A stretch of DNA of 64,000 bases, filler included, from Basidioascus undulatus (GCA_000826855.1; 3 parts of 3 records of this genome joined end to end with filler, not necessarily neighbours in it), one strand, 5' to 3'. Counted from the first letter of the whole stretch, positions 7,101-63,975 are shown. Numbers and translations are program-made. The notes: a model not told the origin generated them from the sequence alone.

Positions 7101-8617
7101 AACGGTATCCGGTACACTTCGCCTCACCGCGACCAGCGGATAGGTGCGTCTTTTCTTTTGCCATCGTGCTGCGCTGTGCGTGGCTGACATTTTCAACAGA
7201 CCTCTTGTTCAGCAACATCAAGCACCTCTTCTTCCAACCTTGCGAGGGCGAGCTCATCGTCCTCATCCACGTCCACCTCAAGGCGCCGATCATGATCGGC
7301 AAGAAGAAGGCGAAGGTACGCGCAGCACATCCCAGAATCAACGCACGAGTGTGGCTAACATTCATGTCCTTATAGGATGTGCAATTCTACCGCGAGGCGT
7401 CCGACGTGCAGTTCGACGAGACGGGGAACCGCAAGCGCAAGTACCGCTACGGCGACGAGGACGAGATCGAGCTCGAGCAGGAGGAGCGCAAGCGGAGGCA
7501 GGCGCTCAATCGCGAGTTCAAGGCGTTTGCGGAGAAGATTGCTGAGGCGGTGTGTTTCCTTCGCCTGACCTTCCCGACTTCTCCGGCTCACTCCATCCTT
7601 GTGCGGGATGTAAGAGCGACGACCGCTTCGAGGTGGACATTCCTTTCCGTAAGTTCTGCACCTGAATGCGGCGCTCGCCCGCTGTTCCGCCGCTGACCAA
7701 AGGTTCAACCGCAGGCGAGCTTGGCTTCCAGGGCGTGCCGCACCGCACGAACGTCCTGCTCCAGCCTACGACCGACTGCCTCGTCCACCTCTCCGACACG
7801 CCGTTCACCGTCGTCACGCTCTCCGAAGTCGAGATCGCGCACCTCGAGCGTGTTTCGTTCGGCGTCAAGACGTTCGACCTTATCCTCGTCTTCAGCGACT
7901 TCACGAAGCCGCCACTGCACATCAACGTCATCCACGCCGCGCAACTCGACAATGTCAAGGAGTGGCTGGACTCGGTCGAGGTGCGTTGTCCTTTCCCGCA
8001 ATTTCCTGCTTTCAACCCGGAAACTTACGCAGATCCATGGCTAGATCCCTCTCTCGGAAGGTCCTGTGAACCTCAACTGGTCGGCCATCATGAAGAGTGC
8101 GTATCGGATAATGATGTGGTTTGATGGTTTAACGCTGACGAGCAGCTTCTTTGCAGCCGTCAACGAGGACCCCAAGGCGTTCTTCGAGGAGGGCGGCTGG
8201 GGTTTCTTGGGCGGTGGCGAGTCCGACGTACGTCCTTTTTCGCGCCGTGACTTCCCTTACACAATAGCTCACGTCGGCTGCGCTCTGGGCAGGCCGGGAG
8301 CGAGGAGGAGTCCGAAGAAGGAAGCGCGTTCTCCGGGGAGAGCGACGTGTTCGAGGACGAAAGCTCGGATGAGGAGTCCGACTTCTCTGACGCGTCCAAT
8401 GACGAGAGCGAGAGCGAGGCCAGCAGCATCGAGTCCGGCGAAGACTGGGTAAGTCTCGCACACTCTCGCGCTATCTTCACACGCGATGGCTAACCTATGC
8501 GTGCAACAGGATGAGCTGGAGCGTAAGGCGGAGAAGGCCGACCGGAAGAAGGCGGAGGAGCGCGGCGATCTTAGCGACGATGACCGCGGTAAGAAGAAGG
8601 GCAAGGGAAGGCGTTGA
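4170..8617 (+). CDS. SPT16: FACT complex subunit Spt16/Cdc68, about 20 exons
   Basis: Motifs [115 protein letters not shown] and an acidic C-terminal tail. All introns read are GT-AG. Confidence 0.97.
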
Positions 8618-15100: not shown

Positions 15101-15921
15101 TCTCTCCCGCTCCCGCCGCCCATCTGGGCGCAACAACTGAAGCACTGCGCTTTTTGAACAGGGGTCTAATCGGGCCCGACAAGATGTTCGGCCAAGGCGC
15201 TCTATACCACTACCAGCTCTGGTTTCTCCTTGTCGGCGCGCTCCTTCCCGTCCCCGTCTTCCTCTGGATCCGTCGCCGCCCGCGCTCGATTTTCCGCAAC
15301 CTCAACTGGCCCGTCCTCCTCACCGGCCCGACGTGGATCCCGCCCGCGACAGGCATCAACTACTCGAGTTGGATTATCGTCGGCTTCATTTTCCGTGAGC
15401 AGCGCTCGTTCTTGTCAGCCGGCTGCAAGTGTGTGTATTCTTACGAAGCGCTTTGCATCGGCAGAATACCTGCTGCGCAGGACGCACTTCGCCTGGTGGT
15501 CGAAGTACAACTTCATTCTTTCCGCTGCTCTAGACACCGGTACGCCTCATCAGTGGAATGCCTTTTGACGACATGTATCAATTCGCTTACCGTCGCGCAT
15601 GACAGGCACCGTCGTTGGCATTATCCTCGTCTTCCTCCTTCTACAACTGCCCAAACATGGGACAGTTGCGTTGCGTTGGTGGGGCAACACGGTATGGGAA
15701 CCCCGCTTACTTCGACCCGCTGGACCAACAAACTTACGAGGGTTTCCACGGGATTCGGTGCAGGTGTTCACAAACACCGCAGATTATCTGGGCATGCCAT
15801 CAAGAACGCCACCGAGTACGGGATTCGGATCTGATACGGTGCGCGCGCTCTCGCCGCGAACAGATACTCAATGACAAGACGGAGCTGACTTGCGCTATCC
15901 CGCCCGCAGTGGAAATCGTGA
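12197..15921 (+). CDS. OPT-family oligopeptide/glutathione transporter, about 16 exons
   Basis: Motifs DSPYPEVRASVSNTDDP..PVMTFRMW, LNPGPFNIK-EHTLITIMANV, FDWSQIAYIGSPL..PWWA, DDIHAKLMRAYPEVPNWWY, QDLKLGHYIKIPPR, WWSKYNFILSAALDTG. Confidence 0.95.
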
Positions 15922-16411
15922 TTTCACAAGGGACTTTCGTTTTCTCTTATTTTGGGTTTCCTCTTGCTGTTTGTTCTTGTTTATTTTACCTCCCCCCGTC
16001 TGCATATACTCGCTGCCTACCCTGCCCTCCCTACCCTCCTTATCGTCACTGTTCAAGAGACGTTCTCTCCCGCCTTCTTTGCACAGCGCGCACTGCGCGT
16101 GGCGCTCCATCCTCCACCATGGGGACCTTCGCTCGGACATGCCATTTGCACTTTACACATCCACACTGTCGCACGTTTACCTTCTCTGGTTCACTTTATG
16201 TTGTCACTTTTACAGCATCTCGAATCCTGTTTCGAGCGAACATCTCACAGCCGCTCTAGACTGGACGTCGGACTGCTTTGTTCACTGCCGTTGCCCTGCC
16301 AACTTGCATAAGTGTGCGAGGAATATAATGAACAAATGTCAAATACAAGGCGGTCGTAGGAAGCCGAACAACGAGAATGCGAACAAGTCCATCCAATCCG
16401 TCCATCCACGC

Positions 16412-19400
16412 TCACGCACTCTCCGTCGCCGGAGGCTTAGCTGCGTCAGTCGTGCCGGACTCGACGGGCGGCTCCGGCGGCGCAGGGAAGAGCTCCTCGA
16501 GGAAACCGGGTAGGAACTGTCCAACGCGATCGGCAGTGCGGTCCCAAAGTTCGACCGCCGCGGCGTCGCGGTCGGGGTGAGAGGGTGGAAGGAGGTAGTC
16601 CGACGCGTTCATGACGAGCACGACGTTCTTGAGCGACTCGGGAATGGCCTCGTACTGTGCGTGTGCAATTGTCAGCCGCGCTGAACCTGATGGAAATTGA
16701 GCAGCACATCAGACACACCAGCTGATCCCGTTGGCCGCTGTTCATGAACCGGTCGAGGAAGTCGAGGACCTTCAGCCAAAGGTTGAGAAGCAGCACCTGG
16801 TCTTCAGCGAGCTTCGCGAGGTAGTTGAGCAGGATGCGGCAGAGGAGCGCCGACGCGCGCAGCCGCGTCTCGCGCATCCCCACGGGATCCCGTTGGAAAA
16901 CCTCGGGCTTGAGGAGCTCGACAAGCATCGGGAAGAGGATCTTGTCGAAGACGATCAAGAGCTTGATGTCGGCGCCGCCAGCAGAGATCTCGGGCGAAAG
17001 AAGCTCCTTCTGCAGGTGACCGAGCGCGAGCTGCCGAACTTCTCGCGAGCGGTTGACGCACTGGCCGGCGAGAGCGCAGAGCGGCGGCAGCCAGAACGAC
17101 TTCCAGGCTGTGGATGCAGGTAATGGAAGGTCAGCACGTTTCAAAATTGGGATGCGTTTTGAGAGTCTTCTCACCTTGATCCTTGTCCGAGGTGGACTGC
17201 TCGATGAGGGGCGGTACAGCAGTCCGAAGCTCGTAAAGGAGTTCCACGGCTTTGAGACCGCGTTCGACTGTCGGTTCACTGTGTACCGCGGTCGACCGAG
17301 GTCAGTGGTGTCCGGAATCCTGCCAACGAAGGGAAGTGTACGTACGAAGCCACGTCAACCGGTGTCTTGGACGATCCGCGGCGCTGGCGCTGCTGCCGAC
17401 TTGACGCACTCGAGCCCGCGGCGCTGGCGAAGTCGTTGAGCGTTGAAATGATAGCCGAGAAGTTGTCAGGCGTAATGCCGTTGCCGAGCTGGTTGGTCGC
17501 GACGCGAACGAGCACGTTGAACGAGGCGCCCGCGGCTTCGGGATGCCGTGTGGTGGCGCTGAAGAGCGAGAGCAGCAGACCCCATTCGGTCGACGACCTG
17601 CGATGGACGAGTAAGCGCCCGGCACTGTAGAGGGCCATCGGCAAACTGCTCACTGAATGGTTGCAGCGTGCTGCTCGATGAGCTTGACGACCCCGGCAAT
17701 GAGCTGCTCGGCGACGGCGTTGAGCACCGGCGGGCTGAGCGTCCGCAGGATGTCGATCGAAACGTAGACTTGATCCCGAAGCTCGGGCTGGAGCGAAATG
17801 GGATCAGCTCGGCTTCAGTAAGGATCGCAATCAGTCGTCGCACCTTATCCGCGATTACCTGAGTCAGTCGCAGGAGGCCGACGACGGCCCGCTCGATGAG
17901 CAGGATGCTGTAGTCCTGCGCCGAAGATAGCAGCGCCGACAGGTGGTCGAAAACGATCGGCCTGTAAGAATATGCGTGGTGAGCCAAGCTCGCGTCGGGA
18001 TACGCCGGATCACCTACCAGTTCTCGACGATATGCTCCGGCGACCGGCTGACCACGCTGACCATCGTTTCGAGGAGGAACAGCGCGGCGCGATCGTACGG
18101 CAACGGCGGATTCCGACGCGACGAGTTCGGCGCCTCGCCGTTGCCGTAAGGAGACGAAGGCGGTTTCTGTCGCGCGGCGAGACGGTCCACCGTCCTTCGA
18201 TCGGCGAGCGCCCGCAGCGCCTGCACGGCGGCGATGAAGGCGTCGCCCTCCAACGACCTGTATGAGCAGCGATGGAGCCTGTCAAGAACAGGCGCGAGGA
18301 AGGCTATCACAGGAAATGAAACCGTACGTGATTTGAGAGTATAGCTCTTCGATCTTGCAGGACGTGATGCAGTCGACGGTGCAGAGCGTGCTCTCGACAT
18401 CGTCCTCCGTCGCCTCGGGAACGACCGCTTCAGCGCTCGAGCTGTACGGTGACAAGAGATATGAGGACAGGGTCGAGAGCAGGCCGGTTTCGGACGGCCG
18501 GCGCCGCTCTTCTTCCTGGACCTCGAGGGGGCTGCCGCTCAGCGGGATGAGCGTCGCGCCACCGAGGAAGTCTTCCATCTGCAGCAGCGGTTGAGGAAGA
18601 AGGGAGTTGATGAACAGCGTCTGGAGCATCTCGAAGATCTGGGTGGCCGGACAAGCTCAGCAAAGAAGCGAGAGGCCTAGATTTGGTAAGCATGATCCTC
18701 ACCTGCGTCCAGCCGCTGCGGATAGCGTTGCCGTTGCCATTCGCGATGTTGAACAGGACGACGGCCGCGAGCTGGCCGCGCAGGTTCGTGCCGAAGTTGA
18801 CCGACAAGCTCGAGACCCTGAGGCTCTGCCCCTCGACTTCCACGATGGGGTTCGCGCACGCGTCCGTCGCGGACGTGTCGTCCACCAGGAGCCCCGTCGC
18901 GCGGCTGAGGCTCATGACGATGAAGTCGAAGACCTCGGGCAGGCTGAACTGCTTGGCGAGCGTCGCGCACTGGCGGAAGCCGGCGATCGCGCGCTGGAGC
19001 AGGTACTCGTCCTGGAACGTCGTGAACGCGTACGAGAGGGCGGAGATAACGGGCTTCCACGCGAGCTCGAACATCTGGCGGTCGAAGATCGGCGTGTCAC
19101 ACGCGATGAGGGAACCTGCGACAGAACGTCAGCGGGTATGGAAGGGAGATCGCCATTGAAGTGTGCCTCACCCGCTTTGACCGACCTGCGCAGCATCTCC
19201 TTCCAGGCGTACTCGAAGCCGAGCTGGCCGTGGTGCTCCTCGGGCATGACGATCTCGCGCTTACGGATGGAGTTGTAGATGGCCGACTGAAAGCCCCAAT
19301 CAATCAGCAAAGAGTGCCTGCGCCTGAGCTGGCTACTAAGCGTCTACGCACCAGGTATTCAGGCGGGAAGTCGGAGCCGTCGTTGACACCGCGCAGATTG

Positions 19401-21624
19401 CGCTTGTAGTCGTCGACCGCCATGCGTCTCTACACACCGCACAAGCTCATTAAATAACCGAGAGGGCTGGAAGAACGATTCGGAAAGACCCACGGCGCGA
19501 TTTTGCGGGTTGTGCAAATCGGTGTTGAGCATGATGACCGAGTACGCAAGGACGTAGGCCGCATCCTGCGACTTGATCTCGGCTGCAGGCGAAATTGTGT
19601 CGTAAGCGTGCGTCGTCCAGCAACAAACGAGAACAAGGAGACTTGCGCGGCTCGGAGGCAAAGTAGCGTTCGGCGAAGGTTTCGGTGATGCGAGCGATCT
19701 GCTGCGCCTCTCCCGGCAACCTGAACGTCTCGAGCACCTCACGCATGCCCTCGGCGATCGTTTTCTGCCCGGAAGCCCCCCAAAACGTCAGCATCTGCAA
19801 CCGCATCCAGGGATTCCACATCGAAAGACAAACTCACGCCCTTGAAGTCGAATGTCGCCAGGAAGGCATTGAGGACCTCGACGTTGTCCGGGCGGGAGAT
19901 GTAGTCGCCAAGGAGGCGCTTGTCGAGGCGGGGGCAGCTCTTGAGGAAGGCCGCGAGCGTGCGCGGCTTGCCCGCCTCGATGATGCCGTGCTCCTCGAGG
20001 TAGGCGAGCCCGAGCTTCGGCTTCGTATTGAACCGCGCGGCGCCGTCGAGCAGGATCCGCTTGCGCGTCTTGATCTGCTGCAAGTGCTCCGGGCTCGGGT
20101 TGTTCTGGAGGCTATACATCAGTTGGGAGCGCCCGCATGATGCAACGGGACAGCGTACGGAAGGCCATGCTCCGACTCCCTCCTGCAAGGATACGTGTTT
20201 CAGCCGAAGTTTGCGTGAGGCTGCGGATTAAGAGTGGACGCACCGTTTCAAGACGAGACGACATGTGGCTGACGAACGCGAGAACTGCGTCAAGACACAA
20301 AACCTGCGCGTTCTCTTGGAGGTTACCAGGGACGTTGCCGCTGGGGAAGACACCCTGCCGACAAAGCATTCAGCGTCTGTGCGCTCGGCGCCCCGTATCA
20401 CGCGTTCAAAGCCAACATACCCTGCTCAAGAACCAGATCATCTTCTCGAAAAGATCCTCGCAGTCGAGATCCGAGTCGTAGTTGACCCACAGGTCGGGCA
20501 TGAACCCGGACCTCCGCGCGAGGTACCCCAGCGATTCGAGCATGAGCTCGCGCGTCTCTCCGTGCGCGGGCTGCGCGGCGCGCGCGGGCGGGAGCGGGGG
20601 CGTGGCGGAGCCGTCCAGGCTGGCGGACCAGGCCAGGAGCGGGTCAGACTCGGTCTCCTGCGAGAGGCCCGAGGCGGCGTCGGCGGGCGTGCCGGGCCGC
20701 GTGGGCGTGAGGACTGCGCCCGCGGACGGGTTGTGCGAGCGCAGAGAAGCGGTGGAAGCAGGCGTGACGCGGTCGATAAGGAAGGAGAGGAAGAGCTCTT
20801 GCTGGAGCTTGAGGTGCGCGCGGAGGGTGTCAAAGAGGGCGTTGATGACGCGGAGAGTGAGGGTGAGGATCGTGGGCGACTCGGAGCGGGCGAGCTGTAG
20901 TCGAAGGGTCAGTCAGCGATCTGCGAGCAGCACAGTGAATTTGACGCACCTGGAACAAGAACTTGCACCCGCCGTCGCACAACATCTTGCGCAGCTCCTC
21001 CCAGTCCACAATGCTCCGCCCGCCAGTGGTAAGCGCGACGTCCAAGATGCCGAGCGCAGCGAGTCGCATCGTGTCCGTGTGCTTGGCGTTGTGCGGGTCC
21101 AGCAGGGAGATGAGCACGCGTAGGAGCTCCGTCACGCTCGGCAGGCCGTACGGCACGAGGGTCGGCTCGCCGTCTTCGGCAACGTCCTGGGGCGCCTGGG
21201 CGGGTGCAGTGCGCGCTGCGGGCACGCCGCGCGAGCGCGGGTCGGGCGCGGCGACGCGCAGGGCGGCCGGGCCGCCGTCGTCCGAGGATGAGGGGTCCTC
21301 GTCGGCGGGGAGAGAGGGAACGGCGGAGAGCGAGGGAGGAGACAGCGTTTTAAGGCGCTCAAAGACGCGGCGTACCATCGCTTGCATCGTGTGCTCGGCG
21401 GATCGGCGGAGCATCTCTGCGGACAGGAAACCCATCAACTGCGTTGCCGGCCCACAGGGTAACCCTACTGTACGTACCACTCAGTCGCATCTGGCAGCAC
21501 ATGCTGAGCCCCGTCTCCATCATCTCGCAGACCGCCTCGTCCGTACATGCCTCGCCGACCTCGCTGCACAGCAGGCGCTCGATGACGCCCAGGATGCGGA
21601 GCAGGACCGCCTCGTCCGACGCGC
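16412..21624 (-). CDS. GEA2: Large Sec7-domain ARF guanine-nucleotide exchange factor, GBF1/Gea1-Gea2 type; 5' part cut by contig end
   Basis: Motifs PYGLPSVTELLRVLISLLDP, DLWVNYDSD, LETFRLPGEAQQIARITETF, YVLAYSVIMLNTDLHNPQ, IVMPEEHHGQLGFEYAWKE, LKNVVLVMNAS. One GC-AG intron near 19583-19648. Confidence 0.93.
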
Positions 21625-21724
21625 NNNNNNNNNNNNNNNNNNNNNNNNNNNNNNNNNNNNNNNNNNNNTTAATTAATTAANNNNNNNNNNNNNNNNNNNN
21701 NNNNNNNNNNNNNNNNNNNNNNNN
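21625..21724. other. Artificial contig-joining spacer (N44-TTAATTAATTAA-N44)
   Basis: 100-nt N run containing a 12-mer with stops in all six frames; the gene on the left is cut and unrelated sequence resumes on the right. Confidence 0.97.
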
Positions 21725-24181: not shown

Positions 24182-27100
24182 ATGGGCTACGTGAGTGCCC
24201 CTTTACAGTGCCAGTGCTATTCGGGACTGATGCAGTAAGAACTTTCTACAGTTGCATCAATACGACTACATCTTCGCCCTTGGCCTAAGAAAGTTCCTCC
24301 TCCGCTCTGCAATCCCTTCAAGAGACTAACCTGGGGGAGGGCCAACAGTCGGCGCGTTCGCGGACGCTTTCGGGTGTGTTACTCCACACACAGCTACACA
24401 TTCAATCCCTCTGGCCGCGAATCTGACAGTCCACCCTTCACTCCCCTCCTCAGCAACGGTGCAAACGATGTTGCCAACAGCTTCGCGACCTCGGTCTCGT
24501 CCCGAAGCTTGACCCTCTTCCAAGCTTGCTGCCTCGCGGTAGTCTGCGAGTTCCTCGGTGCAATTTTAGTACGTTTGGGCAGTGAATATTCCGTGGTGGT
24601 CAAAGACTATAGATTAGAGGCTGATGGGGAGGAGACTGCAGGTCGGCAGCCGCGTTTCTGATGCGATCCGGAAGAAGATCATCAAGCTGGCGCTGTTCGA
24701 GGAGGACCCTGCTGTCTTGGTGAGGCTGTCCCTTAAGTTGAGTTAGTGGCTCCCACTCATCTAAGATTTATCTCTTTTAGATGCTGGGCATGGCTTGTGC
24801 GGTTATCGGCTCGTCGACCTTCGTCATCCTCGCCACGCGCTACAAGTTCCCGGTGTCTTCCACCCACTCCATGTGAGTCACTCAGTGCTCAACCGTGTCC
24901 TGTCTACTAAGTGAAACTGGGATTTAGCGTTGGCGCGCTTTGCGGAGTCGGTATCGCCGCGGGCGGAGGGAACGAGGTCGTCTGGGGCTGGTCGGGCATG
25001 GCCCAGGTCTTCGTGCGTGCTTACTTCCATTGATGTATTGTGGTGTTGTTTTCCTGACTTTACAATTTGGTGACACAGGCTGCATGGGGCGTTGCGCCTG
25101 CCATCGGAGGAGGTTTCTCCCTCGTCATCTACCTGTGCGTCCGCTCAGTTTTCTCTTTCCACACCTTGCAGCTAACGGGTCCTTGTCTCCTCCCTTGTCG
25201 GGATGCAGCATCACCAAGTACGCGATCCTGACCCGCCAGAACTCCACCACGCTGGCAATCTGGTCCATCCCGGTGTACTTCTTCGTTTCCGTGGCGGTCC
25301 TTACGATGGCTATTATCTGGTGCGCATCGTTGCCTTCCCCCATCCCTCTCGTCCATTCCATCTGAATCCCTCTGTGTAGGAACGGAGCACCCCGTCTTGG
25401 TCTAGACAAGCTCAGCCAGGGCGCGACCATCGGGGGGATTCTGGGCACCGCTGCCGTCGCGGCTATCCTGGCTGCGCTCTTCCTGGTCCCGTACGTCCGC
25501 CATGTGGGAGCACCTTGCGTTTCGGGTGATTGACCTCGTGCCGGGAACAGCTATGTTTACGCTCGTGCTATCCGGGGAGACTACACCGTTCGCTGGTACC
25601 ACCTTGCCATCGGTCCCCTGCTCTGGTGGCGCCAGCCGCCCGCCGACGCGGGCAAGTACACTGCTCCGGACGCTGTCCCGGACTACTACAAGGGTGCGCG
25701 ACTGCTCTTCACCTTTCCCTCACCGCTCTCCAAACTTTAACTCCCCTTTCAATCCCAGGCTACCGCGAGGAAGCCGGCGACCTCGCCGAGGGCCTCGACC
25801 CCGTTAACCCCGAAGCAGTCCTCACTGGGGAGAAGACGTCGCATGAGAAGACGTCCGAGCCCGTCTCTGAGGTGGGCCACGACTTGAACAAGGACTCGAA
25901 GCTGGCGGAGGCGGAGCACAAGGATCTTCCGCTCCGGATGAAGATTTTCAAGTTCATTTGCAAGACTGTGCGTAGCCTCACCTCTCATTACACATGGTGT
26001 ATCTGACGGAAACGCGCACGGCTGTCGCAGCCCCTCGGCGGGCCCTTTGTTGATGTCCTCGAGACGCAGCTCAAGGGCAAGGGCGGCACGAAGGAGGAGG
26101 AGCGCATTCGCGCCATGCACCAGCGGGCGGTTCAGTAGTGCGTTTTCTTTCCTTCAGGGCCCTGCTCGTCTCGTACCAATAAAGCTAACACACAATTTTT
26201 TTTAACCGCAGCGACAACAAAACGGAGCTCGCGTACTCGTTCATGCAGGTCCTGACGGCTTGCACTATGTCGTGCGTATCTCTGGCTCGCAATGCTTGTT
26301 TAGGACACGCAGCTCACTTCCCGGCACGCTGTACAGATTCGCCCACGTACGACCGCCTTCCCAACGTGATCCTGACATCCCTGGGAACTGAGAGCCTATT
26401 TCAATTCACAGGGCAGTAACGACATAGCCAACTCCGTCGGGCCCACGGCCACGATGTCAGTCTTACTGCTTGTTTCAGAGCGCGTGCTGTCGCTCACCTT
26501 CTCCCTTCAGGTATCTCATCTGGTCCACAGGAACGCTCGCCAAAAAGGCCGACATCCCTATCTGGATTCTCGCTTTCTGTGCCGCCTCCCTCTGTATCGG
26601 TCTCTGGACTTGTGCGTGCTCCCCGTCCCCGTCCCCGCCTCCTCATTCCCTCCTCCCCCTTCTGCACTCTACTTTTCTTCCCACAACACCCCTTTCTCCC
26701 CTTCTATCCTGCTTCTCTCCCTCTCACGCCGCTTCTTATCTTTTATAACCGAAAGGTACTGACCACGCCCCCTTACCAGACGGCTACAACATCATGCGCG
26801 TCCTCGGGAACAGGATTACTCTCCACTCTCCCTCGCGCGGCTTCTCGATGGAGCTCGGCTCCGCAATCACAGTGATCATTGCCTCGCGCCTCGCGCTCCC
26901 CGTCTCGACGACGCAGATCCTCTGCGGCTCGACCGTCGCGGTCGGGCTTGCCAGCGGGGGGAAGGCGATCAATTGGGGGATGGTCGTGTGAGATTCCCCT
27001 TTCCCCTCACCTCCCTCCTTTAAGCAAGCTGACCACTGATCGCGGGCGTTCGATGACCAGATGGATCATCCTGGGCTGGGTGCTGACGGTGCCCATTGCG

Positions 27101-30090: not shown

Positions 30091-33000
30091 ATGCACATCG
30101 CCTCGGAACACAGACACAGAAGGAAGGAGAAGCAAGCGCAGCAGATAGAGTGGGAAATCAGGCCTCGCAGTACAACGGCATGCCTCCTTTGCCGGAGGAA
30201 AAAGGTCCGCTGCGATGGAGCGAAGCCGACTTGCGCTGGCTGTGCGGTACGTTCCAGGTTAAGAGCGCAGGCGATGAAGGACGCTTGACTGAAAAAGAGG
30301 GATGTGGTCGTAGCTGAGTGGGCAGCTGTGTTCGTGGGATACTGAGGGCGATAGACGAAAGTGCGTCAAGTCCCACAACCTCTGTCGTCCCAGGGTTTAC
30401 TCACTTCCCACTTGCAGACCTTTTACCAAGAAGGTGCATCGACACGCCCTAGCCGCTCTGCTGAGTATTTCAAACTCACTGAGGACTTCGTAATTTGCCT
30501 GGTTCCTTGTGCGACAGATCCGAGATGCACTCGAGCTGCGGATAGCGACGCTCGAGTCCGAGCTCAACCAACTGCGCAACCCTCCCTCCCTTCCGCCGAC
30601 ACGTCCCTCCTCCCCAAGTATGCATACACCACCGACACACGCCCCCGCTCCATCAGCCTTCTGCGGCGGGCTGGCCTTCAACTCACACCGCGAGCTCCGC
30701 TTCGCGGGGCCGACGTCCGACCTTCCCCCGCACCTCGCTCCCCTCTCGTCCGTCCCCGCCCAGCTGCTCACGCACGCGCCCGACCCGTCCACAACGCCCT
30801 TGCCCGTCCCGCCTGGCATCCCGCGCGAGCTGCTCGACCGCATCCTCTGCCTCGCGTTCGACCACGGCCTGGCGTTCGCACGCCTTGTCCCCCGCAAGGC
30901 GTTCTTCGAGAACCTCCTCGCACGCCCGAATGAGCGCACGCACCACTACTCACCCTTCCTCCTTAACGCTATCCTTGCGATAGGGTGCAGGTACCTGGAC
31001 GAGGACGAGACGCTGAGCGAGGTCTGCAAGGAGGACGGCGGGTGGGACACACGAGGGGATGTGTTCAGCGAGAGGGCGCTGGCGATGCTCGTTGATGAGC
31101 ACATGAAGTGCGTGCATCTCCCGCTTGCTCTACATATGCGCTTATTGACCGCCGTGCCGCTCCAACAGCCCTTTGATATCCACCATCCGCGCACTGCTCA
31201 TCCTCGCCGTCTATGCAACGTCTTCGGGAAGAGAGTACGTGCCGCAAGCCGTTTCGATTCAATACAAAGACGCTAACTTTGATGTCCGTCACAGAGGACC
31301 AGGCTGGTTCTATGCAGGTAGAGGCTCTTCCTCTTTCGTTGACCCCCCTGCGTTCGTGACACATTCTCCCCACTGCGTCTGCAAGGCATGTCGATCCGCC
31401 TCGCTCTAGCGTGTAAGTTTTACACTCGTCCACATTCGTATTTTTATCTATGCTCACGACGCGTGTCCTCCGCTCAGTCGGCATGCAGCTCGGCATCCAC
31501 CGCCTCGCAGAGGGTGTCGGCGGCGTCGACGGCGAGCTGATCGAGGCGCGCAAGATCTGCTTCTGGTCCATCTTCATTATCGACGTTCTCCTCTCGATGC
31601 GGCACGGGCGCACAGGCTCTTTCCCCGCGGAGCACATCGACGTGGAGCTCCCAACTGTCTCGCCCGAGGTCGACGCGTCGTGGCCCTCGAACGTCGTCCG
31701 TAAACATCTCTCTTGACCCCTTGTTCAGTTGCGGTCTGACTGGGGAGAACGTTTGCTCATTGTGGTATGGGCGTTTCAGACCTCAGCATTTCGCGCAGAG
31801 AGCAAGCTAATGTTAATTGGGGCGCGCATCGTAAGTTGTCGGACTGCTGCCGGAGGTTGTACCTGCTCATGGTGTTCTCGCGACTTGACGTAGATGGCCG
31901 CTATTTACACACCTGACAAGAGCGTCAGTGTGCGCACGCGAGCGAAAGCTCTACCAGAGCTTAACCTCGAGCTGGAACGCTGGTGCGTCCACCTGCGACC
32001 TTGTCCGGAATAGCAAGTAACGCGACCGGGACAACAGGTACCACGACCTCCCTTCTCATCTACGCGCATTCACGCACTCTCCTGGCGAGGCGCCCGAAAG
32101 TCACATCATCTGCCTCAACGCAACATACTACATGTACGGCCGTCTCCCGTCGCTCGCTCGCATAGGATGTCCTGACAACTGATAATGTTCGGGCTGAGAA
32201 CAGGATGATGATCCTCCTGCACCGGCCTTTCATCCGTCGCGACGCGCTGGCATCCGATACGCACAAGTGCGTCGTCGCCGTGCGCGAGATCGTGCGGCTC
32301 GTGAAGCTTCAGAAGAGTAGTGCCGGGCTCGCATGCGTTCCGCCGCATATTCACCAGTGTGTCCTTCGTGTGCTTTGCCCCACAGGACGGTGCCGTTTTG
32401 ATCATTGTATGGCAGACCGCTCTTGACGGCCGGCACGTTTCTCGCGCTCCTGGCGTTCTCGGACGTGGCGCAGCCTCCGGCGAGCGAGGAGGCGCGCTTG
32501 CGCCGCGAGCAGGCTGAACGAGATCTCAGGCTCATAATCGATGCGCTAAAGGAGATCGGACAGAGGGTGTGGAGAACCGCGAGCACGGGAGCGGACATCT
32601 TGGAGGGTGCGTCTCATGGTTGCTGATCGGTCTCAGAGTAAGCCGGGAGAATACTGCTGACGAGAGTGGGGCTTGCGGCAGGGTTGGTCAAGCAGTGGGG
32701 TGGAAAGCAGCCGTCGTCGTCAGTGCCATCGACGCAGAAACATGCACAACGACAGGATCGATCGCAGCAGGAGCATTCAGCTTCTGTGCCTTTCCCCCCC
32801 GAGGCAGCCGACGCCGTCACGCCCACGTCCTCCGTTGCTTATTCTTCCGACACCATGTCCTCCATGCCGTCCGAATCCGTCGACCCGTTCCCCATCCACC
32901 ACCCACCCGCGTCCTTCCCTTCCACCACCTTTGCCACCCCCTACGCCCCCGCACCCTCGTTCACTGCTGCGCCTGCGCCAGCCGGGACGGCCAACTTGTT

Positions 33001-38835: not shown

Positions 38836-41456
38836 TTAGCGGCCGGCACTCTGCGAGTCGGAAGATTAAGTAAGATAGATATCGAAGGACTGCAATCGAC
38901 TAGGGCGAGGAGCACGGACCTTGGGTGCTCTTGACGTGTCCAAGGGAGGCAGTACCCAGCCGTTTTTGCGCAGCGCAATGAGGTCCTGCGGGGGGATTTG
39001 CAATGAGCAATTGGTACTGGATTTGCCATGGGAAAGACATCCCACCTGGACCTTCAACCTCGTGCTGGCGCCCAACCTCGGTTCGTCCGCCTCGCTCTTC
39101 AGCCTCTCGAGGTACGCGTCCACCGCGTGGGCGTCCTGCGGCGTGTCGAGAAAGCTCCCCGCCGTGCCGAGGAGCATGACGAGCGCCCCGATGTCCTTGT
39201 CCGCTAGCCTGCGCGGGGCGCGGTCGGGACCGAGGATGCGCTCGATCACGAGCCGGCAGAAGCGCGCGCTCAGGAGCTGCAGGCGGCAGGCGTAGCCGAA
39301 GAAGCACATCAGGCCGAGGCCGTCGTCCTTCGGTGCGGAGGAGGGGCGGGAGGAGGTGTTTGCGGGGAGGGGCCATCGCGCGTCCAGAGCGAGAGTCGCT
39401 TCGGCTAGGAGGTACTTGCGGAGGAGGACGCCTTCGGCGAGCGGGTTGCCGGCTGCGTCGAGGTGCGCCGGATCCTCGATCGCGCGAGGGAGGACGGCGG
39501 AGAGGTCGGAGGTGAGGGTCTGCCGGGCGAAGGGTGGTGAGCACGAGGAGCTGGAGATCGTTCAGACAGCCGCCGCGCTCGACTCACAGCGTAGAGGTCG
39601 ACGTTCGGCAAGTCCGCGCACGCGCGCTCGATGACGAGCCGGACGAACTCGCGCAGCGGCCAGGGGTCGGGGACGAGGACGGACACGAAGGACGCGATCT
39701 GCTCGAGGACCCAGGACTGCTGCTGGTGGGGGCTTGTCGGGGGCATAGCGAGGCACCATCAGCGCAGGTCGAAGTGTGATGCGAAACAGGAGAAACTTAC
39801 AGCACCCCCAGGAGCTTGCTGATTGCCGCCGTCACGCGCGTCGGGATCGGGCGCGTGTCCTCCCCGTCGGGCGGGGCGAACGGCGTCTCGGATCCGCCGT
39901 TTGTCCGTGCGGCGCGGGCGTGGCGGTGGTGCTGATGGTGATGGAGGTGGTGATGGTGGCGGCACCCAGCGTGGTCGTGCGCGTCCGCCTCCCCATCCAT
40001 CATCTCCTCGTCCTCATCCTCCTCGTCCGCGACGTCCTCCTCCTCTTCATACTCCTCGCTCTCCCCATCGCCCATGCTCTCCTCGTCCGTGAAAGTCGTG
40101 ACGAGCTCCCCGCCGACCTCGCTCCCCTGCGCCTCGCGCACGCTGATCTCCGCGGGCGTGCGGAGGTGGAACGGCGCGAGGCTCCGGAGCGGGAGGGCCC
40201 ACGCGCGCGCGCGCGCGAGCACGCAGTCCATGAGCATCAGGCGCGCGCGCATACCCATCTCGGGCCGCTTCGCAAGGAGCTTCATGCTCGCGACGACGGC
40301 GTCGAACGTCTCGCGCGCGGGCGGGTGCTCGGACGCGGGATGGTCGAGCCGCGGCCCGAGCTGCGCGAATAGCCCGCAGAGGACCTCGATGTCGTCGGGG
40401 GAGGGGTCGGGCAGGTCTGCGAGCGAGCGCAGCGCGTCGAGGATCGCAGGGTGCGGGACGAGGTTGACCTTGTGCAGGGCGTCTAGGAGCCAGAACACGC
40501 CGTGGCGCATGCGCACGGGCGCGGCGAGCCCCTTCCACCCGAGCTCCGGGGGCGCGCGAGACGGGCCCATGGGCCGCAGCCGGAAGCAGATCACGAGCGT
40601 GTCGTTCTCGTGGAAGCCGGCGATGAGCTCCTGGTGGAAGAGCTCGTCCGCGGCCTCGTCCGAGCCCTCGACGGCGCCCCAAATTTCGGCGCGGATGCGC
40701 GCGGCGAGGAGGATGTACGCGTCCGCGTGCGCGAGACGCGGGCCCTCGTCTACCGCGCGCGCCCAGATCTCGCGCGCGGTGTTGCGGATCGTGTGCGCGC
40801 CCGGCTCGAGCTCCGCGGACGCGTTGAGGAGCTCGACCACGCGCGGCGCGAGCACGCTCCAGTTGTCCATCGTCAGCCGGTTCAGGAGGCTGCGCACGTT
40901 GCGCGTAAGGTACCGCGGCGAGAGCGGGGGCGTCTCGAACGCCTCGACGAGGTGGGGCGGGATGGACTGCGTGAGCCCGAGCGCGTGCGGGACAAAGCCG
41001 CACAGCGTCGGAACGAACGTCGCGATCTGCCGCGCGGGGCCGTCGCTGGAGGAGTGGGCGGAGGGGGAGGCGGACGGCGGGGAGGGGAGTGCCCCGGAGG
41101 GCGGCGGGAGGGAGTGCCCGTTCAGGAGGACCGGCGGCTGCGCGGGGTCGAGCGTCCAGTGCGCGTACGCCTGTGCCGACGCGGGCGGCAGGGGCTCGCG
41201 CGGGGAGAGCGAGTCCGGCACGGGCACGACATGCCCATTCGTTTGCTGTTCTGGGTGCATCTGGCGAGACAACAATGTCATCATGAGAAAAGCTGCTGCT
41301 GGTGGGACGCGTCTGAAGGAGGGCAAGAACGGGCGAACCTCGAGCACGCCCTCATCCTCGCGCACCCTTCCGTCCTGGTCGAACGCGACCGGCCCGCCAT
41401 CCAGCGCGCTCAGATGTTGCGGGACGTGGACGTTGTTGGTGGTGGTGTCGCTCTGT
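38836..41456 (-). CDS. Tandem eIF4G-like MIF4G-domain coding region (probably the 3' half of a fusion gene with the upstream LRR region)
   Basis: Domain 1: RNVRSLLNRLTMDNW...IWARAVDE...DIEVLCGLFAQLGPRLD...RARLMLMDCVLARARAW. Domain 2: FVRLVIERAC..PNVDLYA...GLMCFFG...DIGALVMLLGTAGSFLD...RLKVQ-DLIALRKNGWV. Confidence 0.8.
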
Positions 41457-41656
41457 CTGAGAAGGAGACGAGAAGGAGGGATTTCGCCGCCGGCACACAC
41501 CAACCAACACCATCATGCATCAGCGATACGGCGCCCATCATTGATGCGTGGAGGATAAAGAAGAAAAATGAAGCGTGCGAGCGAGCGAGAGAGCATGCCA
41601 TCCCTCCCCGCGCCCCACCCTCACAATCCGTGTGCCCACTCTCCCCCCACCCCCCT

Positions 41657-41672
41657 CGCGCGCGCGCGCGCG
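41657..41672. repeat. (CG)8 alternating tract inside a G-rich putative intron
   Basis: cgcgcgcgcgcgcgcg flanked by C-runs (G-runs on the minus strand). Confidence 0.9.
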
Positions 41673-41699
41673 CCGCCCCGAAAGGGAGGGAACGACTAC

Positions 41700-43317
41700 T
41701 CACCCCCCCACCGTCAAGCCCTCCACGCCCCGTCGCACATCCTCCATCGACCCCTGGCTCTGGCTCGGGACCTGGACCTGCTGCTGCTGGGCGCGGACGC
41801 CCCCGCGCCGGACGAACTCGCGCATGCGCCGGACCTCCTCCTCGACGCGGTCGAGGACGATCCCGCAGAAGGCCTCGCCGTCGCGCAGGAGGTCGCCGTC
41901 CGCTGCGGGCGGGGCGGCGAAGGCGGCTTCGAGCGAGCGCGTCGTGGACTCTTGCAGGGAGGCGAAGAGCTTGGCGGTGCTTCGGCGGAGGGCGGAGGAG
42001 GCTGGGAGGGGAAGGCTGGATGCGAGGAGGCGGTCAGCGCCTTGTGGGAGGGGAAAATGAGGAGACACCCACGTCTCGGTCGCGGCGGGTTCGGAGGAGT
42101 CGTGCGACTCGTCCAGCATCTCCTGATCTTGATCCTGATCCAGCTCCTCGTCTTCGCCCTCGCTCTCCTCCTCCTCGTCCAGGGGCTCGGCGTCCGATAC
42201 CCATACCCACTTGCCCCCCTCCGCCATTACCCACTCCCGATCCTCCTCGATGCCCCCCTCGCCTTCGCTGGCGCCGGGCCTCCACGCCTCCTCGACCTCC
42301 CACCTCTGCCAGTCGCTCGGCGGGCCGACGTCCGCGCCGAGCCCGAGCACCTCGACGAGGCCCAGCCCGTCGCGCTCCTTGCCCCAGGACTTGCCGTCGA
42401 TCTCGAGGCGGGAGAGGTGGGGAAAGAGGGGCAGGAAGTGCATAAAGTACGCGCGGAAGGGCATGCTCGTCGCGTCGTCCGCGCCGTCCGCGGGCGGGGC
42501 GAGGCGCGGATGGCGCGCGGGCGGGAAGGAGCCGGTGAGGAGGAGGGTGTGGAGGTTGCGGGAGGGGTGGATGAGGTGGAAGAGGCCGTGCGGGGACGTG
42601 GGCGGGGTGTTCTTGATTTCCACGGAGCGTAGCTCGGCGAGGGAGACGGTGCAGGACGAGAGGAACGCCTCGCCCTCTGCGGGCGAGCACTCACCCAGGG
42701 AGACGGAGACGAGGCGGAGATGTTGCAGCGCGGGGTTGCGCGAGAGGAGGTGCGAGAGCGAGCGCGCGGAGAAGGAGGGGAGGTGCGTGAGCGTGAGGGA
42801 CGTTAGGAGCGTTAGGTGCGTGGCTGCAGGTGGGTGCAGGGAGGCACCTATGAATCGCCAGGAGAGATGGGAGAGGGATAGGTGCGAGAGCGTTGGGGGC
42901 AGTTTTTGGAAGAGCGAGGGGGGGAGGTAGATGGATGGCAGGGAGAGCTGGGGGGTGGGGGTCAGCGACATTCACGCTTTTACCCATCCAGGTACCACAA
43001 CCCCGGAAAAGACACTCACATCCAGTCCTCTGAGCCCGCTTGCCCGCTCCACACACCTCCCAATGAGCCGTCCAAGCCGGCCATCGCCCCGTCCGCCTAC
43101 GCTGGCCTCGCCTCGCCAATGGCTAGCCTCTGTCCAGTCCCCCTCGACCTTGAACCACTTGAGCGCCTGCGCAGGCGTCCAGTCGCGCTCGAGGTATTCT
43201 GCGTACGCGACTACCGCGGCGAGGGTGGGGAGGTGGAGGGCGACGGGGGGCGGAGTCGTGCGGTAGAGGGAGGAGGAGGAGGAGGTGAGGGAGATGGGGA
43301 GAGATGCATGAGAGGAA
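41700..43317 (-). CDS. RNI-like leucine-rich-repeat coding region (F-box/LRR-type), 5' end lost at contig end
   Basis: Repeats LRGLD-LSL, LPPTLSHLSLSHL, LTSLTLTHL, NPALQHLRLVSV, LRSVEI, LHTLLLTG, FPHLSRLEI, followed by an acidic tract. Confidence 0.7.
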
Positions 43318-43331
43318 CTGGAAAAAGTATT

Positions 43332-43431
43332 NNNNNNNNNNNNNNNNNNNNNNNNNNNNNNNNNNNNNNNNNNNNTTAATTAATTAANNNNNNNNNNNNN
43401 NNNNNNNNNNNNNNNNNNNNNNNNNNNNNNN
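43332..43431. other. Artificial contig-joining spacer (N44-TTAATTAATTAA-N44)
   Basis: Same 100-nt linker as at 21625. Confidence 0.97.
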
Positions 43432-43842
43432 GGCGGAGACTCGCCTGCGATCCCGAAGAAGTCGCTCGAGTCCGCGCCCGCAGAATCCGAGGCGGAGGCA
43501 GCGCCCACGACGCCGCCTCCCGCAGCGACCGAGGAGGCCGAGGCGGAGGCGTACCACTCGACAAACCCGACGCCCGTCAACTCGCCCATCGCGTTCAAGC
43601 TGCGCCCGCTCAACCCCGAGGGGGACGCACCCGAGCGCGAGCCTGCCGCGCCCGGCGCGGCGCAGTACGCTGCCGAGGAGGACGAGAGCGAGACGGTCAT
43701 CGGCCGCGCTGCGGAGATCGTCAGCACCGCACGCGACCTCATGAACGCGCTGTGGAGCGTCGGGATGGGCGGTGGGGCGGAGCGGAGTACGGGTCCCGCT
43801 CCTGCGGCGGCCGCGGCCGCGGCCGCGGCTGAGAAGGAGTAA
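43432..43842 (+). CDS. 3' end of an unidentified gene cut by contig start
   Basis: Open, GC3-rich frame GDSPAIPKKS...VIGRAAEIVSTARDLMNALWSVGMG...AAAAEKE*, followed by pyrimidine-rich 3'UTR-like sequence. Confidence 0.65.
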   Translation, partial: GGDSPAIPKKSLESAPAESEAEAAPTTPPPAATEEAEAEAYHSTNPTPVNSPIAFKLRPLNPEGDAPEREPAAPGAAQYAAEEDESETVIGRAAEIVSTARDLMNALWSVGMGGGAERSTGPAPAAAAAAAAAEKE

Positions 43843-49934: not shown

Positions 49935-51092
<1,158 letters not shown>

Positions 51093-59940: not shown

Positions 59941-61313
59941 TCACATTGCCCATCCGAAGCCCGAGAGCTTCTCATTGAGCCCATCATCGATGTACTTGGC
60001 GAACTCGTCTTTGTACTCCTCGCTCCAACGGCTGAGCGGCGGGCGGCCCTCAACGACGTCGGATGCACTCCAGGCCATTCTTAACTGGTCCAGTCGCTCC
60101 GAGGTGTCGTTGTCAGGGACGATGACGTCTGCAAAATGGAAACCAAGTTGAGTTGCGACTCTCGATAATGAGGGTATAAGCGGGACCAACAGAACCGCTT
60201 CGGATCCTTGGCGATCGCGTTGAACAGGTAGGAGACAGTCTCTTCGGCAGTGAAGGCGCCGGCGGGCTTTTCGGACCCTGTCGATTTGCCAGTCATGTTG
60301 GTCCAGGTCCATCCAGGGCTGAAATCACCGGCAAGGCGTCAGTTTCGGGAAGACTCAGGCGGGGCGCAAAGAACTGAACGCACACGAAGAGAACGGACTG
60401 GACTTTGCAGTCCGGCGTGTTGCGCAGCTCGTGCTGCAGACCTTCCGTCAAGACCTTGACGGCGGCCTGAAGGGCGGCAATCATAGCAGTCAGTACATTG
60501 CATGGAAAGCCTGAGCATTGTCGCGCATCTTCACAACGCACCTTGCTGGTGTTGTACGCGAGGTTGCCGGGCGGGCAGGTGATACCTGCGCGTTTCGTAG
60601 AATCAGTTGAGATAGGAGTACAGGGGAGGATGTAAAGAGATTTCCCCTACCTTGCTTCGAACCGGTGTTGATCACGAGCGAAGGGATCGACTGCTTCTTC
60701 CTGAATATCGAACAAGGCGTCAGCATGAGAGGAGCGCATAGCGCATCGCAAGCATCTCCTACGCACATAGCCGGCACGAAAGTCTGCACGCCGTTAAGCA
60801 CGCCCCCAAAGTTGACACCCAGCGTCTTGTGCCATTGCTCGTAGTTGTCGGTCGCGCCAGCGCGGCCCATGGTGCCGGAGTTGTTGATCAGGACCGATAC
60901 CTGCGTCGGCCGCCCCTTCCTCGTCAGCAAATGCAGGCGCGCGTAAAGCAGACGAGACGGCGATACAGAACCAACGCACGTCGCCGAACTCATCCCGCAC
61001 ATCACGGAACAGGTTCTGCACACTGACGATCTCGCTCACGTCCGTGTGCACGGTCCGGACGTGCGCCGCGCCGTACTTGGCAGCGAGCTCCGAGCCAGCT
61101 TTAGAGAGGCCATCCGAGTCAAGGTCGGCGAGGACGACCTTCATCCCCGCGCTGTTGAGCGTTATATGAGCCTTGGAGTTTTGCGAACAAGCAAGACATG
61201 AACAGGAGGAAGACACACCCAGCGAGGTGGTCGGCGGCAGCGAGGCCAATCGATCCCGCTCCGCCAGTGATAACGGCGACGCGACCGGCTTTAATGGCAG
61301 GGTGGTGAGACAT
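59941..61313 (-). CDS. Short-chain dehydrogenase/reductase (classical SDR), 8 exons
   Basis: GRVAVITGGAGSIG, LINNSG, VNFGGVLNG, INTGSKQGITCPPGNLAYNTSK (YxxxK), PGWTWT, PDND, RPPLSRW. Confidence 0.92.
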
Positions 61314-61962: not shown

Positions 61963-63975
61963 TCAGTAGATCATGCTGCAGGAGCGGGCAATGACGTGTG
62001 AGACGAACTGTCCGGTGAACAGATAGAGGAAGACGAGAAACTTGCCTGCTCATGTCCGCACGGATGCGGCCGTAATCCAGGAGACCCTCAATGCGACCGT
62101 GAGCAGCGATCGCGATCTGTAAGAGAAACGCAAGGAGCGCATCAGCGACGTCCAAAAGATGCGATAGTACAGCGAAAGAGTCGACTCACGTCCTTGTCCC
62201 ACAGATACTTCTGCGCCACACGCTGGATCTCCGCCGAGGTGACCTTAGCGATCGCCTCCTCGATCTCCTTCGGCGTCGCGCGGCGGCCGGTGGTGACGAG
62301 CTGGCGGCCGATGTCCTCCGCGACGGCGGTGGTGCCGTCGAGGCCGAGGAGGAGGGACGCCTTAAGCTGGGACTTTGCACGCTCGACCTCGCCCTCGGTG
62401 GGCGCGAGGCTCATGCGCGTCCACTCGCGGAGGGTGAAGTGCACGAGGTCATCGATCTGGGACAGGTTCTCGGAGACGAGGTAGATGCCCCAGAGGCCGG
62501 AGTCCGAGTACGACGTCGAGAAAGACATGTAGCTGTTGGCGAGGTTGTTGGAGCTCACGATGTGCGAGAGCCGGCTCGAGAGCAGCGGGCTCGCGCCGAG
62601 CGAGCGGTCCCAGTTGCCGAAGATCGACTGGAGGACGAGGAGCGGGTAGTAGTCAGGCGAGGACCAGCCGGCGCCCTCGACCGCGATCGCGATGTTGGCC
62701 GTGGAGCGGGTGTCGTCGCGGATGCGGACCTCGGAGCCGACGAACTGGGTCTTATTGTCGCCGCGCTGGCCGAGCGGGATCGGGTTCTTGGACGTCGGGA
62801 GGTTGCCGAAGTGCTTCTTGGCGAGCTCGACGAGCTCAGAGTGGGGGATGCCGCCCGCACCGGCGAGCACCATGCGGTCCGCGGTGTAGTTGGTGGAGAT
62901 GTAGGAAGAGAGGTCGTTGCGGGAGATAGACTTGATGTTGGCGGTCGGGCCGAGGATGGTGCGGCCAAGGGGCTGGCCTGTAAGCATCCACCAGCGTGTC
63001 AGCGATCTTCTCCCCGGACGTCCTGTCTCGCCATGGCGAGTGGTTCCCTCCCGAGTGAAGGCCCCTTTTCTGCGCCACAAACATCGATCGACCAGCACTC
63101 ACCCTGGTAAGCGACGGCGTGCAGGTGGTCAAAGACGACCTCCTCGATTTGCTTGTCAACCTCCTCCTGCTCCCGGAGGATAACGTCCCGCTCGCGCTCG
63201 ATGGCGGACTCCTCGAGCTTGGAGTTTTGCAGGATGTCGGAGAGGATGTCTACGGCCTTGGGGACATCGTGGTTGAACGCCTTGGCGTAGTAGACAGTCT
63301 GCTCGCGCGAGGTGTACGCGTTCAGGTGTGCGCCGATCGACTCGACCTCGAGCTCGAGCTGGTGCTGCGAGCGGCGGTTGGTACCCTGCGGGGAAGGTAG
63401 GTGGTGTCAGCGACCGGACTTTCATTGCATGGCTGGGGGATGGACGGGTCAAGGCAGAAAGGAGATCCAGGTATCTTGATCAAGTGATGAGGGTTGGCGT
63501 CCAGCAAGGCAGAAGACCGGGGAGGGTCCCGTCATTTGCCCCTCGCGCGAGGAAGACGCCCCTTGGACGCTCAGATCGCCTTCTTCGCCCAGTTCATCCA
63601 CCCGCTCTTCTTCCTCCTATCCAGCCCGTTTCCTCACCTTGAACGCCATGTGCTCGAGGAAGTGAGCGGTGCCGTTCGTGGCATCGGTCTCAGCGCGGGA
63701 GCCCGAGTCGATCCAGACACCGACGGTCGCGCTCTTCGCGTTGGTAGCCTCGGTCGCGACGGTCAGGCCTGTTCATCCAATTGACCCTCCACCACATCAG
63801 CTACCAGACCACCCCGCATATGGCGATGGGAACCAGGCTCTGCACCGTTGTCCAGGGTGGTGATCTCGGTCTGGGGCCCGTTCACGGCGGTCGCAAAGGA
63901 GCGGGCGGCGAGGGACCGGCGCGCGCCGGCGCTGCGGAGGCCCTGGCGGAGCGAGGGGAGGAAGCGGGACGCCAT
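61963..63975 (-). CDS. MAS1: Mitochondrial processing peptidase beta subunit / complex III core 1 (M16B)
   Basis: Arg-rich presequence [41 protein letters not shown] (HxxEH), [39 protein letters not shown]; the last intron is GC-AG. Confidence 0.96.

Follow-up and report, generated by a model that had tools for sequence, protein, structure and literature searches.

The MIF4G domain of eIF4G is a HEAT scaffold that docks DEAD-box helicases. Leucine-rich repeat (LRR) and MIF4G domains come together in the CCR4-NOT complex, where the LRR domain of CCR4, CAF1, and the MIF4G domain of NOT1 work in one complex, on separate proteins bridged by CAF1 (PMC3510486 and other papers). Among the papers listed for MIF4G, leucine-rich repeats, and fusion, no LRR-MIF4G protein was described, and the relevant papers were all on CCR4-NOT. 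Here, we analyzed positions 38836..43317 of a 64,000-nt stretch of Basidioascus undulatus DNA (GCA_000826855.1), hereafter the window, where an LRR-like gene is followed by a gene for two MIF4G-type domains; all the features of this locus lie on the minus strand. The stop codon of the first gene sits within a strong splice donor, and the second gene begins with a coding exon that has no start codon. The likeness to CCR4-NOT is a resemblance only, as we found no homology to either CCR4 or NOT1.

The closest relatives of the upstream half are three Wallemia proteins: WALSEDRAFT_61498 of W. mellicola (P0122, 485 aa), E3P99_01095 of W. hederae (P0123, 510 aa), and E3P86_00455 of W. ichthyophaga (P0124, 511 aa). 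A database search with the LRR open reading frame (ORF) returned four proteins, these three (E 1e-160 or better) and one metagenome protein of 408 aa. The aligned relatives share 63-73% identity with the window, including long invariant runs, and P0122-P0124 are 66-73% identical over the whole length, with the same order of regions and the same implied intron position. They are annotated as stand-alone proteins, named RNI-like or hypothetical in their source records. In the window gene –whose LRR-frame ORF runs from 42971 to 41703 and terminates at TGA 41702-41700– the stop lies in a strong donor, and the coding exon after it has no start codon.

For the downstream half, the nearest described proteins are multi-MIF4G armadillo-type or eIF4G-like proteins of Mycena, Tulasnella, Ceratobasidium, Astraeus, Sanghuangporus, Entrophospora, and plants, with two to three MIF4G domains per chain and 590-1016 aa, compared with ~760 aa here. 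They differ in being at most 30% identical and in that none has an LRR part, and some contain an eIF_4G1 domain not found here. Both halves of the window's MIF4G gene also align to the eIF4G-type MIF4G domain (PF02854; structures 4iul and yeast eIF4G1 2vso), but they are very divergent from it.

We propose that the locus may be one transcription unit whose product depends on splicing or stopping. A fusion protein made by splicing is the single most likely model in our opinion, although we would not call it the majority outcome. In this model, the ancestral stop of a conserved LRR protein of ~490 aa would overlap a strong 5' splice site, GG/GTGAGT (the slash marking the exon end). If 41703-41457 is removed, the LRR frame would continue in phase into 41456-41339 and then into a double-MIF4G region of ~760 aa, giving an LRR-linker-MIF4G-MIF4G product of ~1250 aa. 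If the interval is retained, translation would halt one codon later and yield the conserved LRR-only protein. By analogy, the fusion could tether an LRR interaction module to an eIF4G-like HEAT scaffold that docks DEAD-box helicases. We infer the splice, a transcript start at the LRR promoter, and any function from the DNA sequence. That the ancestral stop became, in this lineage, a 5' splice site, with a gene that makes either an LRR-only protein or an LRR-2xMIF4G chimera, is conceivable, and we suggest it more tentatively still.

The first-pass annotation had drawn attention to a stop codon hidden in the donor, and the minus strand indeed reads this way: TGA 41702-41700 lies inside GG/GTGAGT, the donor GT is 41703-41702, the T and G of the stop are positions 2 and 3 of GTGAGT, and the last exon base would be 41704. 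The pyrimidine-rich acceptor proposed along with it is also present, as the tract CCTTCTCGTCTCCTTCTCAG ends in the AG at 41458-41457, from which the exon would start at 41456. Removing 41703-41457 joins GG and A into a Gly codon, with phase 2 on both sides, and leads into the 571-codon ORF 41512-39800, in agreement with the phase-2 join into the MIF4G frame that had been claimed. The GCTGAT branch-like site was correctly described too: the distance from its A to the acceptor is 63 nt, and this stretch contains no AG. The AG-free run before the acceptor is 145 nt, a length found at 4 of the 8158 AG sites in the window.

To score these signals, we built a position weight matrix (PWM) and intron statistics from 21 introns, curated by homology or by continuity of Pfam-profile coordinates, in ARF1, both genes of the locus, SPT16, the GBF1-like Sec7 gene, the M16 peptidase gene (MPP), the OPT transporter, and the short-chain dehydrogenase; two ambiguous introns, SPT16a and OPTe, were left out. 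An automatic intron finder that relied on flanking coding score proved too noisy, with 159 candidates, and this curated set replaced it. The candidate donor scored 6.8, in the top 0.5% of all GT, against a range of 1.6-7.6 for the real donors (leave-one-out), where 4 out of 21 reach 6.8. A TGA or TAA overlapping a GT presented an equally high donor score in 12 of 2547 cases in the window (0.5%), and the stop-in-donor arrangement is more than chance would readily give.

The candidate acceptor scored 4.7 (real acceptors, -0.2 to 6.7), and the pyrimidine content of its last 20 nt was 0.95, compared with 0.25-0.75 in the curated introns. Curated intron lengths ranged from 46 to 275 nt; ARF1 intron 1 has 275 nt and the MPP intron 252 nt, in line with the introns of about 250 nt reported earlier for both genes. 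A YTNAY motif was located 11-28 nt from the acceptor in 20 of the 21 introns, including these two long ones, and the single exception has CTGAA by eye. Altogether, we consider that the junction 41704^41456 is probably real, with a confidence somewhat better than even.

The downstream exon had been described as coding-like, rich in GC at third codon positions (GC3), and devoid of its own ATG, and our codon statistics lead to the same description. Its 39 codons (41455-41339) have GC1/2/3 values of 0.77/0.38/0.87 and codon log-odds of 10.7, which was reached by none of 20,000 shuffles and none of 10,883 presumed non-coding windows; among 883 trusted coding windows, it ranks at the 15th percentile. 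This exon is coding, and no in-frame ATG occurs from the upstream stop (41515-41513) down to 41284. Thus, it must join an upstream coding exon. The in-frame ATGs further on are at 41284, 41281, and 41260, the last one directly 3' of the acceptor of the probable 41338-41261 intron. ATG 41260 as the whole story of the MIF4G start was rejected, since exon 41455-41339, upstream of it, is clearly coding.

When we enumerated an ATG plus a single GT-AG intron, two short-intron models out of 256 kept the coding exon. A CT-rich tract followed by an ATG, used as a predictor of gene starts, was not discriminating at the threshold used. The two models describe ordinary adjacent genes, where the donor context of the LRR stop is coincidental and the MIF4G gene has a tiny first coding exon. 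In one version, ATG 41541/41538 opens the exon 41541-41509 and a 56-nt intron follows (41508-41453); in the other, ATG 41516/41513 opens the exon 41516-41509, followed by a 52-nt intron (41508-41457). Both give an open frame into the start-less exon, their donor GTTGGT fits the GTNNGT pattern, and introns of 46-57 nt are found in 4 of the 21 curated cases. However, neither the 52-nt nor the 56-nt intron contains any YTNAY, and the donor scores 3.1, which is above just 2 of the 21 real donors and is equaled by 9.7% of all GT. Moreover, in the first version the nearer CAG, at 41457, has to be bypassed in favor of an AG located 4 nt further downstream, and the second has three out-of-frame ATGs within 28 nt upstream.

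Base composition bears on the same question from both sides. The 50 nt before ATG 41541 (41599-41550) are CT-rich, with a GC skew of -0.46, like the five 5' leaders examined; these leaders and two 3' untranslated regions (UTRs) range from -0.32 to -0.60. The candidate interval as a whole is unlike them, with 36% G and a GC skew of +0.15, a G-rich 5' half, and a C-rich 3' part. The 150 nt past the LRR stop have 40% G on the sense strand and a skew of +0.19, unlike the two 3'UTRs and similar to the 275-nt ARF1 intron (+0.14), which the whole interval also resembles in composition. Within the first 100 nt past the stop, there is a (GC)n microsatellite followed by G-runs (41654-41672, minus strand). 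Rfam gave no family in the candidate interval; the one match in the locus, outside the interval, was a chance mir-598 (E 0.13).

Separate genes would also agree with the relatives of both halves: the LRR orthologues stand alone and end here, and so do, in Agaricomycetes and other taxa, multi-MIF4G proteins of 590-1016 aa occur without a fused partner. Against this, the stop-to-ATG spacing would be 158-183 nt, far below the ~640-1000 nt of three other same-strand pairs in the window (a rough comparison, with gene ends taken from ORF and Pfam maps), and a top-0.5% donor placed exactly on the stop, with matching phase, must be due to chance. Overall, two ordinary neighbors with a tiny first exon appear to us a doubtful explanation.

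The start could also be hidden in other ways: a draft indel in 41512-41457 that masks ATG 41516 or 41541, non-AUG initiation, or the use of ATG 41260 with a recently lost or untranslated upstream remnant. In favor of these options, this is a draft assembly with artificial linkers between its contigs, the frame that begins with ATG 41516 stays open down to ~41353, and in-frame ATGs are available at 41284, 41281, and 41260. However, the score of segment 41512-41457 in the MIF4G frame is that of non-coding DNA (log-odds -5.4), exon 41455-41339 has a codon signal that greatly exceeds chance, and a leader containing that exon would hold two out-of-frame ATGs (41400 and 41355) before reaching 41260. 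We regard this group of explanations as quite improbable.

Several observations weigh against the fusion model. The C-termini of the three Wallemia orthologues fall within one residue of TGA 41702-41700 (one of them is a residue shorter). Since these stand-alone proteins end there, the TGA is the ancestral stop, and the LRR family works without a MIF4G tail. An intron-retained mRNA would carry a 3' region of ~2.8 kb past the stop, so polyadenylation within the intron would be needed for the LRR-only form. Counted from the start-less exon, the MIF4G domain would begin at residue 179, against 185-191 in the Agaricomycete proteins P0028 and P0009, which fits an independent N-terminus near this exon. 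When the LRR ORF was compared by blastp with the 121 MIF4G relatives described below, no row was obtained at E <= 10. No fusion was found among longer proteins searched with the MIF4G exon (967-2760 aa) or with the LRR ORF (729-2080 aa), a weak negative with ~8000 word-sharing candidates scored in each search.

The intron itself also has weak points. Just 2 of the 21 curated introns exceed 200 nt, and the sole consensus branch site of the candidate (CTGAT) is the one located 63 nt from the acceptor, outside the usual 11-28 nt. The RNA between this distal branch site and the acceptor was no more stable than shuffles (z = -0.09), so folding gives no obvious shortening of that distance. Besides, AG-free runs of 105-144 nt occur inside the LRR coding sequence as well, and AG depletion is therefore partly compositional.

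The same splice could also serve two separate proteins. If the MIF4G promoter lay inside the 3' coding end of the LRR gene, the 247 nt would be a long first intron, translation would start at an in-frame ATG located 15 codons before the donor and the LRR stop within it (~41749-41747) or at ~41825, and the LRR mRNAs would end within or after the interval, unspliced. All the splice evidence for 41704^41456 applies equally to this arrangement, and ARF1 provides a precedent, with an 18-codon first exon followed by the 275-nt intron. The LRR protein would stay stand-alone as in Wallemia, and the N-terminal region of the MIF4G protein would have about the length seen in P0028 and P0009. However, this explanation needs a promoter and a leader within highly conserved coding sequence, and the 100 nt before the ATG are ordinary coding DNA, not the C-rich leader of the other starts (5/5). 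The ATG has T at -3, where the five starts read have A or G, and the 63-nt branch problem is the same. We find an internal promoter unlikely.

Returning to the fusion model, the two halves are conserved to very different degrees: the MIF4G half has no close orthologue (best, 30% identity), whereas the LRR half is ~70% identical to Wallemia, which points to different histories. As the three LRR orthologues stand alone and end within one residue of the TGA, the fusion, if real, would be lineage-specific rather than ancestral.

Regarding the MIF4G gene, we searched the 552-residue translation of 41455-39800 with phmmer against 1.84 billion representative proteins. It retrieved 121 relatives at E <= 1e-3, seven at E <= 1e-10, and none at 1e-30, and the best match had an E-value of 4e-19 and 30% identity. 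The 20 relatives named were Agaricomycete armadillo-type or hypothetical proteins, an Entrophospora protein, plant eIF4G-like proteins, and unnamed metagenome records, and none was from Wallemia. In the top relatives scanned, Pfam MIF4G was far above threshold in 15 out of 15, and nine of them had two or three copies. The alignments span query residues ~176-430 and start where the MIF4G domain of eIF4G canonically begins; for domain 1, the PDB matches were the DAP5/eIF4G2 MIF4G structure 4iul (E 4.5e-5) and yeast eIF4G 2vso. ORF 39561-38866 matched the same relatives by blastp with E-values down to 3.7e-16 and, combined with exon 39732-39588, makes up the second MIF4G domain.

Despite this homology, each domain missed the PF02854 gathering score of 30.8 (domain 1, 19.1 bits and E 0.0011; domain 2, 19.3 bits and E 0.00098). 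The homology of both halves to the 121 relatives nevertheless agrees with the two MIF4G domains annotated previously, and the gene encodes two divergent domains of eIF4G type. In no piece of the gene did eIF_4G1 (PF12152), MA3 (PF02847), or W2 appear at E <= 1, and the gene is thus not an eIF4G orthologue. Between the domains, the linker (39920-40050, minus strand) presents an acidic run and then a His-rich stretch, with many H in ~25 residues. The stop hidden in the donor of intron 39800-39733 is what any phase-2 GTRAGT donor does. If the last proposed intron (38919-38851) is spliced, the gene would end at TAA 38838-38836, after a final exon of only four codons; otherwise, its stop would be 38868-38866.

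The LRR gene belongs to an uncharacterised, strongly constrained family of basidiomycete proteins, with neither a Pfam family above threshold nor a solved relative. Identical runs of ~20-35 residues are common to the window gene (GC3 0.88) and the Wallemia proteins. Residues 20-104 of the translated 5' exon are 80% identical to residues 16-100 of P0122. The two introns of the gene (43019-42948 and 42072-42016) could be placed because the orthologue alignment fixes their junctions, and the intron-blind metagenome protein P0125 terminates where the second one falls. A metagenome scan with the LRR alignment produced 292 pattern matches and no confirmed relatives.

The LRR nature of this protein is only moderately supported. 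Pfam LRR_At5g56370 scored 18.8 bits on the gene, below its cut-off of 27, and the Atlas places the orthologue among RNI-like clusters of 406-513 aa. The AF2 model of P0122 has a mean predicted local distance difference test (pLDDT) score of 52.9; only residues ~95-240 reach 66-89, with six strand/helix alternations. Among the top Foldseek matches listed for this model, all were LRR proteins (TIR1, TLR8, internalins, FBXL17, COI1) and all were weak, with none at E <= 0.001. A PDB sequence search with the orthologue gave no match at E <= 1.

The F-box/LRR (FBXL) adaptors TIR1, COI1, FBXL2, and FBXL17 resemble the P0122 model weakly (Foldseek E 1e-3 to 1e-2). Unlike them, neither the N-terminal exon of the window nor the three orthologues contain an F-box: Pfam gave no such family at E <= 1 in the first exon –whose first few codons lie past the contig end– or in P0122-P0124. 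Moreover, the window already includes the conserved N-terminal region, and the Wallemia proteins extend only ~15 residues upstream of it. For these two reasons, the idea of an F-box and a ubiquitin-ligase adaptor is unsupported. The first-pass annotation had also pointed to the gap at 43332 as the place where an F-box might be found; the gap exists, but it is an artificial linker, and the orthologue N-termini leave no room for the domain. Of the fusion gene that it had put forward, the splice signals, the phase, the coding start-less exon, and the two MIF4G domains stood, whereas the F-box/ubiquitin-ligase part did not.

At the assembly level, positions 43332-43431 consist of N44 + TTAATTAATTAA + N44, and the identical linker is found at 21625-21724. 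The linker TTAATTAATTAA has stops in all six frames. Both gaps are artificial contig joins and the window is a contig chain, so DNA across a linker need not adjoin in the genome. The contig of the locus has 21.6 kb and ends at 43331. Past the linker, a coding-like Ala/Glu/Pro-rich ORF on the plus strand (43432-43842, ending at 43842) may be the 3' end of an unrelated gene of the next contig. Positions 39001-43000 are the GC-richest part of the window (0.68-0.72 per kb vs. 0.49-0.66 elsewhere). The LRR and MIF4G genes have few introns and long exons, whereas the neighboring SPT16, OPT, GBF1, and ARF1 genes have many short exons. The features of the locus and its surroundings are collected in Table 1.

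Table 1. Features of the LRR and MIF4G genes and of the rest of the window (GEF, guanine nucleotide exchange factor)
Feature	Position	Strand	Details and basis
LRR gene, 5' coding exon	43020..43331	-	truncated by contig end; no in-frame ATG on contig; GC3 0.83-0.93
LRR gene, intron 1 (72 nt, GTGAGT, CTGAC 14 nt from 3' splice site)	42948..43019	-	holds in-frame stop; orthologue alignment crosses the junction unbroken, GLD / LSLPSIY
LRR gene, main exon (LRR repeats and invariant central region)	42073..42947	-	identity to P0122-P0124
LRR gene, intron 2 (57 nt, GTGGGT, CTGAC at 18 nt, in frame)	42016..42072	-	gap in all Wallemia orthologues; splice signals; GC3 dip
LRR gene, last exon including TGA 41702-41700	41700..42015	-	near-identical to Wallemia C-terminal region
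Candidate 247-nt intron	41457..41703	-	rivals: 3'UTR/spacer and MIF4G gene start instead
Coding exon without start codon, upstream of MIF4G ORF	41339..41456	-	codon log-odds; no in-frame ATG
Probable in-frame intron (78 nt, GTTCGC, CTCAT at 23 nt)	41261..41338	-	log-odds -8.4 vs. +10.7 in the preceding exon; splice signals
Main MIF4G exon	39801..41260	-	disordered Pro/Ser-rich region, MIF4G domain 1 (~40930-40166), acidic and His-rich linker
Intron (68 nt, GTAAGT, phase 2, hides TAA, CTGAT at 26 nt)	39733..39800	-	needed to carry the frame into MIF4G domain 2
Exon with start of MIF4G domain 2	39588..39732	-	ORF 39405-39758; weak blastp matches to MIF4G domain starts
Intron (68 nt, GTGAGT, CTCAC at 18 nt)	39520..39587	-	frame change between ORFs; splice signals
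Remainder of MIF4G domain 2 and 3' end of the gene	38836..39519	-	blastp to MIF4G relatives
Two probable further introns	39045-38986, 38919-38851	-	suggested by signals alone
SPT16/FACT	4100-8600	+	Pfam map
OPT oligopeptide transporter	12200-15800	+	Pfam map
GBF1-like Sec7 GEF	16400-21500	-	Pfam map
PHO4 phosphate transporter	~26750-27000	+	Pfam map
Fungal-specific transcription factor	~31400-31700	+	Pfam map
ARF1	49935-51092	+	Pfam map
Short-chain dehydrogenase	60500-61313	-	Pfam map
Mitochondrial-processing-type M16 peptidase (MPP)	62145-63800	-	Pfam map

Finally, if the splice is real, this locus would be a clean natural case of a stop codon in a splice donor that switches between a conserved protein and a new fusion. 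Its LRR plus MIF4G architecture would be without counterpart among the 121 MIF4G relatives from 1.8 billion representatives. An LRR recognition module would thereby be connected physically with an eIF4G-like scaffold for helicase docking, hinting that the binding partner of the LRR family may be linked to mRNA or to the translation machinery. If the splice is not real, these would be two ordinary neighbor genes and a warning for annotation, as ab initio predictors could merge them. Under either reading, the LRR family merits attention.

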